From the NCBI RefSeq assembly GCF_003334785.1, contig NZ_QOWV01000001.1: DNA of 64,000 bases; one strand, written 5' to 3'. The notes under the pieces are model-generated. The model was given only the letters and a program-made list of their open reading frames with translations. It was not told the origin of the DNA and made no database searches. Shown here in pieces: positions 18,765 through 18,863 of this stretch (the first letter of the stretch is position 1; every line of letters begins with the position of its first letter). This DNA comes from Escherichia coli (GTDB lineage Bacteria > Pseudomonadota > Gammaproteobacteria > Enterobacterales > Enterobacteriaceae). The translations under genes and the position numbers were made by a program.

Positions 18765-18863
18765 GCCTGATGCGCTACGCTTATCAGGCCTACGTGAACT
18801 CTGCAATATATTGAATTTGCATGCTTTTGTAGGCCGGATAAGGCGTTTACGCCGCATCCGGCA
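18765..18863. repeat. REP/BIME cluster between convergent rhlE and ybiA
   Basis: Same two REP units and caatatattgaat linker as at 2061-2158. Confidence 0.85.

Follow-up and report, generated by a model that had tools for sequence, protein, structure and literature searches.

BIME-1 elements and their IHF-binding linker L were reportedly described in 1991-1993, and consensus sequences for their Z1, Y and L parts are said to have been published by Gilson in 1991, by Bachellier in 1994 and 1999, and by Boccard and Prentki in 1993. The same elements go by two further names: RIB, for "reiterative ihf BIME", which is attributed to Boccard and Prentki in 1993, and RIP, which reportedly stems from Oppenheim and colleagues in the same year. 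The motifs that flank the REP pair are said to be called A and B in the original BIME papers. REPINs, as reportedly described by Bertels and Rainey, are REP doublets that form hairpins and are mobilised by RAYTs.

In the definition given by Ton-Hoang et al. (2012, PMC3333891), BIME-1 comprises one z1 and one y REP in inverted orientation, is present as a single copy and has a linker L that is long and well conserved, frequently with an IHF site, while BIME-2 comprises z2 and y joined by a short linker and occurs in tandem copies. Interaction of the inter-REP sequence of BIME-1 with IHF has been reported (Nunvar et al. 2010, PMC2817692), and the IHF site in linker L also appears in PMC3184786. 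Three REP types are listed by Durrant et al. (2024, PMC11208160), exactly those seen here, and naRNA4 has been described as a Y hairpin together with a Z2 hairpin (PMC12152304).

We analysed a stretch of Escherichia coli DNA of 64,000 nt (the window), which corresponds approximately to positions 813,525-877,524 of MG1655 (NC_000913.3), with window position 1 at 813,525. Over the first 33.5 kb the window differs from MG1655 by 11 substitutions and no indels, and many complete E. coli chromosomes match the 1-kb piece around the focal cluster, between rhlE and ybiA, at 100% identity. A preliminary description had placed five REP/BIME clusters in the window, beginning at 2061, 18765 (the focal cluster), 24018, 32107 and 44092, and when the sequence was re-read all five proved to be real at the coordinates given. 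The RefSeq annotation of the MG1655 region lists no repeat features, which neither supports nor contradicts these clusters. Those at 2061, 18765 and 44092 and, in inverted orientation, 32107 are BIME-1 (RIB/RIP) copies (Table 1); in MG1655 coordinates the elements at 2061, 18765, 32107 and 44092 span 815,565-815,711, 832,268-832,418, 845,603-845,729 and 857,596-857,744. The explanation that best accounts for the data as a whole, and one that we hold with high confidence, is that the window contains four BIME-1 copies and a BIME-2-type cluster at 24018, that the linker is the L motif that defines the family, and that the elements most likely act by the mechanism proposed in the literature.

Table 1. 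Positions of the repeat units, linkers and flanking motifs in the window.
Feature	Position	Strand	Details
Focal left flank motif, CTGATGAACAAACGCAAAACT	18744..18764	+	Moderate conservation in the 76-copy alignment; consensus CTGATGACAAAcGcaAaAtT
Focal Z1 REP, 29 nt	18765..18793	- (GTAG-first)	Exact match to the unit
IS621 target ATCAGGCCTAC inside focal Z1	18783-18793		
Focal L linker, 35 nt	18794..18828		Core CAATATATTGAAT at 18804-18816
TTTT at end of focal linker	18825-18828	+	A-tract on - strand
Focal Y REP, 34 nt, GTAGGCCGGATAAGGCGTTTACGCCGCATCCGGC	18829..18862	+	Exact match; fits first hairpin of the Rfam naRNA4 model
Focal right flank motif, ATTTCACAACAAGCACTTGTCAGCAATTTGAG	18863..18894	+	Contains a small inverted repeat, ACAA..TTGT
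BIME-1, uvrB/ybhK	2041..2187	+	Left flank 2041-2060; Z1 2061-2089; L 2090-2123 (34 nt, core 2100-2112); Y 2124-2157; right flank 2158-2187
BIME-1, ybiT/ybiU	44072..44220	+	Left flank 44072-44091; Z1 44092-44120; L 44121-44155 (core 44131-44143); Y 44156-44189; right flank 44190-44220
Inverted BIME-1, downstream of glnQ, upstream of ybiO	32079..32205	-	Z1 32177-32205; diverged L 32141-32176 (36 nt); Y 32107-32140; right-flank motif 32079-32106
BIME-2-like cluster, hcxB/ybiJ	24018..24137		Degenerate Y-like unit 24018-24045; spacer 24046-24060 (15 nt); Z2 24061-24096 (+, 36 nt); short linker 24097-24103 (7 nt); Y 24104-24137 (-)

The units in the window were inventoried with blastn-short. The 29-nt unit GCCTGATGCGCTACGCTTATCAGGCCTAC has four exact copies (2061+, 18765+, 44092+ and 32177-), where shuffled sequences lead one to expect 0.00, and has no match in the 24018 cluster even with three mismatches allowed. 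The 34-nt unit was found with 0-2 mismatches at 2124+, 18829+, 44156+, 32107- and 24104-. The proposal that all five clusters share one unit pair therefore holds for the clusters at 2061, 18765, 44092 and 32107 and fails for 24018, which has the 34-nt unit without the 29-nt one. In the four BIME-1 clusters the 29-nt and 34-nt units lie on opposite strands, with their GTAG ends pointing inward, on either side of a linker of 34-36 nt, and each locus contains exactly one such Z1-L-Y unit, in non-tandem form.

The names of the units follow from the published composition of naRNA4 (Y plus Z2), from its Rfam consensus, which opens with GGCCGGAUAAGGCGUUUACGCCGCAUCCGGC, and from the three published REP types: the shared 34-nt unit is Y, the 36-nt unit Z2 and the 29-nt unit Z1. 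With these names the clusters at 2061, 18765, 44092 and 32107 are BIME-1 and the cluster at 24018 is BIME-2-like. The Rfam model of naRNA4 (RF02564, Y plus Z2) scores 78.4 bits at 24064-24134 on the - strand, and on the four BIME-1 copies it matches the Y hairpin only, at 36-41 bits, which is under the gathering score. The 24018 cluster has neither a Z1 unit nor an L linker; its Y and Z2 are joined by a 7-nt linker as in BIME-2 and REP325, the source of naRNA4, but REP325 is a multi-copy tandem array, whereas 24018 has a single full Y/Z2 pair and one degenerate unit, and we accordingly call it BIME-2-like rather than a typical array. The clusters were rightly taken for ordinary enterobacterial REP/BIME elements, and the architecture of the four matches the published definition of BIME-1. 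The further suggestion that the conserved linker marks one BIME subtype is correct in that the subtype is BIME-1, but its membership had to be revised to four of the five clusters instead of three, with 24018 outside it.

The preliminary description had overlooked that the 32107 cluster, once reverse-complemented, shares the architecture of the other BIME-1 clusters, downstream flank included, and that its linker is a diverged form of theirs. It had also overlooked that similarity extends beyond the REP pairs, by approximately 20 nt upstream (CTGATGACAAAcGcAAAAc) and 30 nt downstream (AACAAcGCGCACtTTGTCAGCAAT.TGAG). An alignment of 76 extended copies, drawn from the matches listed, gave a conserved element of approximately 150 nt that consists of left flank, Z1, L, Y and right flank. 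The right flank is conserved in this alignment (consensus AtgAAcAAnGcGCACtTTGtCAgCaaTctga) and is present in all four BIME-1 copies of the window; the left flank motif is found in three of the four, and the window copies fit the alignment save for the left flank missing at 32107. With BIME-1/RIB/RIP the loci share an inverted, single Z1 and Y pair, a long conserved L with a putative IHF-type core, a position at the 3' ends of transcription units and an abundance of tens of copies per genome, and they differ in nothing material, the 32107 copy having a degraded L core and no left flank. Nothing here departs from the known family, and the elements were already known; as the linker already has a name (L) and a reported binding protein, it marks nothing new. 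The value for discovery is small, as BIME-1/RIB and the IHF-binding L linker are long described and still cited in current reviews. The practical use is in annotation, where BIME-1 is the appropriate label for the four loci and BIME-2-like for the fifth, each feature being drawn about 50 nt wider than its REP pair.

Several copies show variation at the apex of the Y unit (equivalent to window positions 18845-18849), where GGCG-TTTA-CGCC is replaced by GGCG-CTTG-CGCC or by a CTCG apex (L010, L018 and L102). The E. albertii ortholog of the focal copy is among them, and both loop-closing positions change together, so that the palindromic symmetry is kept. Two of the neighbouring genes have a GC-rich hairpin of their own between the stop codon and the left flank of BIME-1, rhlE with ATGCCGGGCTATGCCCGGCAT at 18719-18739 and ybiT with CCGTCACCCCGATACTGTCGGGGTGACGG at 44040-44068, neither of which is followed by a T-run.

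The linker shared by the clusters at 2061, 18765 and 44092 was borne out: the 13-mer CAATATATTGAAT occurs exactly in all three (at 2100, 18804 and 44131), always 10 nt past the 29-nt unit, and is expected 0.00 times in shuffled sequence. The core of the 32107 linker, as its reverse complement, reads CAACTTATTAAAA and is identical at 9 of 13 positions, and the whole linkers have 22-24 identities over 36-37 aligned columns. We scanned species-representative genomes for Z1 and Y ends that face each other over 20-50 nt of unconstrained linker, and the matches listed comprise at least 120 loci with 134 Z1/Y pairs, which are a sample and not per-genome totals. Among these, linker length peaks at 34-35 nt (79 of 134 pairs), and the core is present with at most two mismatches in 79 of the 134 linkers (34 of them exact), compared with 23 of 20,000 random 35-mers of the same composition; 65 of the 134 pairs have it at one fixed offset. 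Broken down by taxon, again among the matches listed, the core was found in 22 of 25 linkers from E. albertii, in 14 of 17 and 7 of 8 from two other Escherichia species representatives and in 31 of 41 from Pseudocitrobacter, with 0 of 16 from Kosakonia and 1 of 15 from Citrobacter.

For a genome-wide count of the linker subtype we used a 43-nt linker-only query, made up of the focal linker, with nothing of the two REPs but their CTAC and GTAG tetranucleotides. It matched all 5,426 of 5,426 complete E. coli genomes, at a median of 25 places each (range 7-41), a lower bound, since against a 28-Gb database the E-value limit lets through near-exact matches only. Nearly all places were chromosomal (141,861, or 99.97%), and 46 were on plasmids. 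The linker is not a local peculiarity; it is the family-defining L motif. Conservation within it is uneven: across 56 distinct 35-nt linkers among the matches listed, positions 9-23 (TGCAATATATTGAAT) are 87-100% conserved and the terminal TTTT (positions 32-35) 83-94%, and positions 1-8 reach only 50-66%.

Some matches fell outside the expected taxa. Z1/Y pairs of the Escherichia type were found on short contigs labelled as an Oscillospiraceae MAG, Desulfosporosinus sp. OT (a 262-nt contig) and a Bacteroidales MAG (L003, L027 and L028); L027 has an L linker and the other two have short 21-nt linkers. These contigs most likely represent enterobacterial contamination or mis-binning. In E. albertii NZ_BBMY01000101.1, four whole BIME-1-type units (Z1, L-type linker, Y and flanks) follow one another in tandem at 6932-7533 with a period of approximately 147 nt; as BIME-1 is described as single-copy, this array looks like an amplification of the whole module. 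Within the window, a linker-like sequence at 38804-38837, CAATGTATTGAAA (two mismatches), lies 11 nt before GTAGGCCTGA, which is BIME-1 spacing. It is, however, inside the opgE reading frame and lacks a REP to its left, and we judged it a chance resemblance.

Strong IHF sites such as lambda H' consist of a core with an upstream A-tract. The - strand of the linker suggests the same arrangement: its core reads ATTCAATATATTG, which differs from the IHF core consensus WATCAANNNNTTR at one position, and an A-tract lies 8 bp upstream of it. Matches to the consensus with one mismatch number 65 in the window against 52.6 expected, approximately the chance rate, and the consensus match therefore carries no weight alone. 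In the linkers of the matches listed, conservation is also 87-98% at the four N positions of the IHF consensus; IHF does not require this, and common descent or gene conversion could account for it instead. Judging from its sequence, the 32107 copy, with a degraded core (9/13), may have lost IHF binding.

As RNA, either strand of the focal region folds significantly better than shuffled sequences (z = -5.7 and -4.3), and the main hairpins are those of the REPs. In single-sequence minimum-free-energy folds each REP folds on itself, and in RNAalifold, run on 56 copies among the matches listed, Z1 pairs with Y to give one long doublet hairpin; the covariation term is a negligible -0.4, and, as the retrieval pattern fixed many of the paired columns, the RNAalifold result favours neither of the two folds. 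In the gap between rhlE and ybiA, neither a canonical intrinsic terminator nor a promoter was called.

Consistent with the preliminary description, which had placed the clusters at the 3' ends of genes and mostly between convergent pairs, the MG1655 gene map shows four convergent gaps (uvrB/ybhK, rhlE/ybiA, hcxB/ybiJ and ybiT/ybiU) and one co-directional gap (glnQ/ybiO), and each of the four BIME-1 loci lies downstream of at least one stop codon. We extended this to 87 BIME-1 copies among the matches listed, 56 of which had a long ORF called on both sides. The neighbours of these 56 elements are convergent in 40 cases, co-directional in 9 and 7 (the two orientations) and divergent in 0; a 3' gene end adjoins all 56, and the elements show no orientation preference, though many of the loci are orthologous between species and thus not all independent. 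This pattern fits a DNA-level or symmetric role, or plain exclusion from promoter regions.

The copies in the window are old. Of 5,426 E. coli genomes, 4,301 have the focal copy in the same place, among them lineages with only approximately 91% identity there. It has orthologs in E. albertii, where both flanking genes are approximately 89% identical, and in a further Escherichia species. For the uvrB/ybhK copy, too, an ortholog was found (L103), and its flanking genes match. This orthology across Escherichia, together with the wide presence, identifies them as old residents and not recent insertions. Three exact-linker BIME-1 copies and a diverged one fall within 42 kb (2041-44220). In genome H22, whose rhlE-ybiA region is identical to the window, the linker query has 35 places in 4.8 Mb, which gives a post-hoc Poisson P of approximately 0.012 for three or more copies in 64 kb. 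The copies may form a local cluster, or their number may result from selection in the way the window was flagged.

Two other repeat families invite comparison. Like REPINs, BIME-1 has two inverted REPs that may be able to pair across a spacer, and the REPs of E. coli are substrates of a Y1 transposase; unlike in REPINs, the arms of BIME-1 differ from each other (Z1 versus Y), the 35-nt spacer is conserved in sequence and the window copies are ancient and fixed in position. There is no RAYT gene within the window, and the ancient orthology of its copies argues against recent replication of these particular copies. Correia elements, a MITE of Neisseria, are likewise small, dispersed intergenic repeats with an IHF-binding site between inverted repeats (PMC3184786), but their sequence is unrelated, and they have MITE-type terminal inverted repeats, target duplications and possible promoters, all of which BIME-1 lacks.

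How these elements most likely act can be sketched from the literature. On duplex DNA, the L core, with ATTCAATATATTG and the A-tract 8 bp upstream, would be bound by the bending protein IHF between REPs capable of forming cruciforms or hairpins. In transcripts that enter from either neighbouring gene, the REPs would fold into stable hairpins and thereby impede 3'-to-5' decay and attenuate read-through. Elements of this kind would be expected to persist only where promoters are left undisturbed, that is, at the 3' ends of transcription units, convergent gaps above all. The REP units would also serve as substrates for the REP-associated Y1 transposase (TnpA-REP/RAYT), and they are targets of IS621. 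The sequence analysis itself establishes the architecture, the conservation of the linker across the family, the copy number, the genomic context, the age and the use as an IS621 target; IHF binding, the action on mRNA and transcription and cleavage by RAYT come from published work.

Other accounts of the linker have to be weighed against this one. That its identity in three clusters is a chance resemblance between unrelated spacers gains something from the motif being AT-rich, and 13-mers with two mismatches do arise by chance (6 in the window, with 1.7 expected). We nevertheless give this account no credence: three exact copies where 0.00 are expected, all at one offset from Z1, and a core in 79 of 134 pairs among the matches listed, as opposed to 0.1% of random 35-mers, refute it, and the alignment of the clusters and the shuffles agree that the resemblance is better than chance, as had been supposed. 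A different proposal would make the linker a small-RNA gene, RF02751 (ES036/CssrF), on the strand opposite to the Z1-to-Y reading, with the three identical linkers as three copies of it. The model matches the - strand at 2082-2123, 18786-18828 and 44113-44155 with 41.6-43.4 bits, above the gathering score of 37.6 (the 32107 copy, at 20.7 bits and E = 0.094, falls under it), and both strands of these gaps are probably transcribed by read-through from the convergent genes. But the 43-nt RNA that it models has a 5-bp stem, UGCAA/UUGCA, that is not maintained: it is intact in only 18 of 56 distinct linkers among the matches listed, broken pairs number 48 and compensatory changes 2, and conservation is lower in the 3' arm than in the loop. 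With the stem mostly broken and the sequence conserved, the linker behaves as a conserved sequence, such as a binding site, and not as a conserved RNA helix. The linker also occurs at least 25 times per genome (median), always between two REPs, and the focal gap yielded no promoter-like site; searching the literature for ES036/CssrF brought up nothing relevant. We therefore regard a small-RNA gene as extremely unlikely. Most likely RF02751 models a segment of the repeat: the three exact linkers share a sequence match with it, and differ in being part of a dispersed repeat whose stem is not maintained, such that RF02751 matches at BIME-1 loci should be read as repeat matches and not as sRNA genes.

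The linker may also have no host function at all, in which case BIME-1 would be a selfish, REPIN-like REP doublet spread by the REP-associated transposase, its linker conserved through recent ancestry or gene conversion, and the 3' ends of genes simply places where insertion is tolerated. The consensus fold of RNAalifold, a long Z1-Y doublet hairpin with L as its loop, agrees with this, as do the cleavage and recombination of BIMEs by TnpA-REP in vitro (PMC3333891), the N positions of the IHF consensus being as conserved as the specified ones, the lack of an orientation bias relative to genes, the lack of any copy in a divergent (promoter) gap and the tandem array of four whole units in E. albertii. 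Against it, the window copies are old and fixed, as the history of the focal copy illustrates; positions 1-8 of the linker have drifted while the core is conserved in the same copies, which is hard to obtain from recent descent alone; and specific binding of IHF has been reported (PMC2817692, PMC3333891, PMC3184786). We consider this selfish origin rather unlikely as the reason for linker conservation, which is the only point it addresses, the identity of the elements being unaffected. At the other extreme, selection might keep the whole module of approximately 150 bp, with its flanks, IHF-site core and A-tract, as a DNA-level device at convergent gene ends, and four copies in 42 kb would then reflect regional chromosome organisation and not chance. 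If true, the device could, for instance, be bent by IHF and act as a barrier to polymerase collisions or to supercoiling driven by transcription, but we think it very unlikely. We thus retain the identification of the four loci as BIME-1 copies with the family-defining L linker.

The REP units of these elements are also sites of insertion. The natural bridge-RNA target of IS621 in REP elements is ATCAGGCCTAC (Durrant et al. 2024, PMC11208160), and exact copies were found in the window at 2079-2089, 18783-18793, 24061-24071, 32177-32187 and 44110-44120, so that every Z1 and Z2 unit holds one of the five; by chance 0.02 would be expected. In strain EC21Z-014 (NZ_CP101274.1), IS621, an IS110-family element with a bridge-RNA recombinase, lies inside the focal BIME-1 (2200-3510). 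The junctions read ...CTTATCAGGC-CT|TGTATT... and ...ACAGTAT|CT-ACGTGAACTCTGCAATATATTG, with CT on both sides, and from these we place the insertion at the CT in the GGCCTAC tail of Z1, window positions 18790-18791. This strain is a natural example of IS621 targeting its site in a REP, and any Z1 or Z2 unit offers the IS621 bridge recombinase a natural place to land.

The intact focal locus is missing in approximately 1,125 of the 5,426 E. coli genomes. In E. coli O157:H7 (NZ_CP038333.1, 3654-6273), an AT-rich segment with the type III effector gene espX2 replaces both ybiA and the BIME-1; the replacement begins directly after the rhlE stop codon and corresponds to window positions of approximately 18713-19430. 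No REP was found in the replaced gap.

Further observations concern the surroundings of the BIME-2-like cluster at 24018. Its Y unit ends at 24137, 3 nt from the stop codon of ybiJ (24141-24143, -). REPs at most 15 nt from a stop codon have been reported to lower translation of the upstream gene (PMC12306157), and this Y unit is inside that distance. The annotated sRNA zbiJ (23911-24007, -) starts just past the cluster, and the small ORF ybiE (23979-24038, +) overlaps its degenerate REP.

Elsewhere in the window, a truncated REP half, CGCGTCTTATCAGGCCTgg, lies at 50810-50846 between the convergent genes fsaA and moeB; it corresponds to a Z2-type 3' half that has lost its CTAC tail, and CTGATGAC is found approximately 12 nt upstream of it. 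It is a decayed REP, absent from the preliminary description. A molybdenum-cofactor riboswitch (RF01055, 103.6 bits) was found in the moaA leader at 3388-3532 (+), an expected and ordinary feature.
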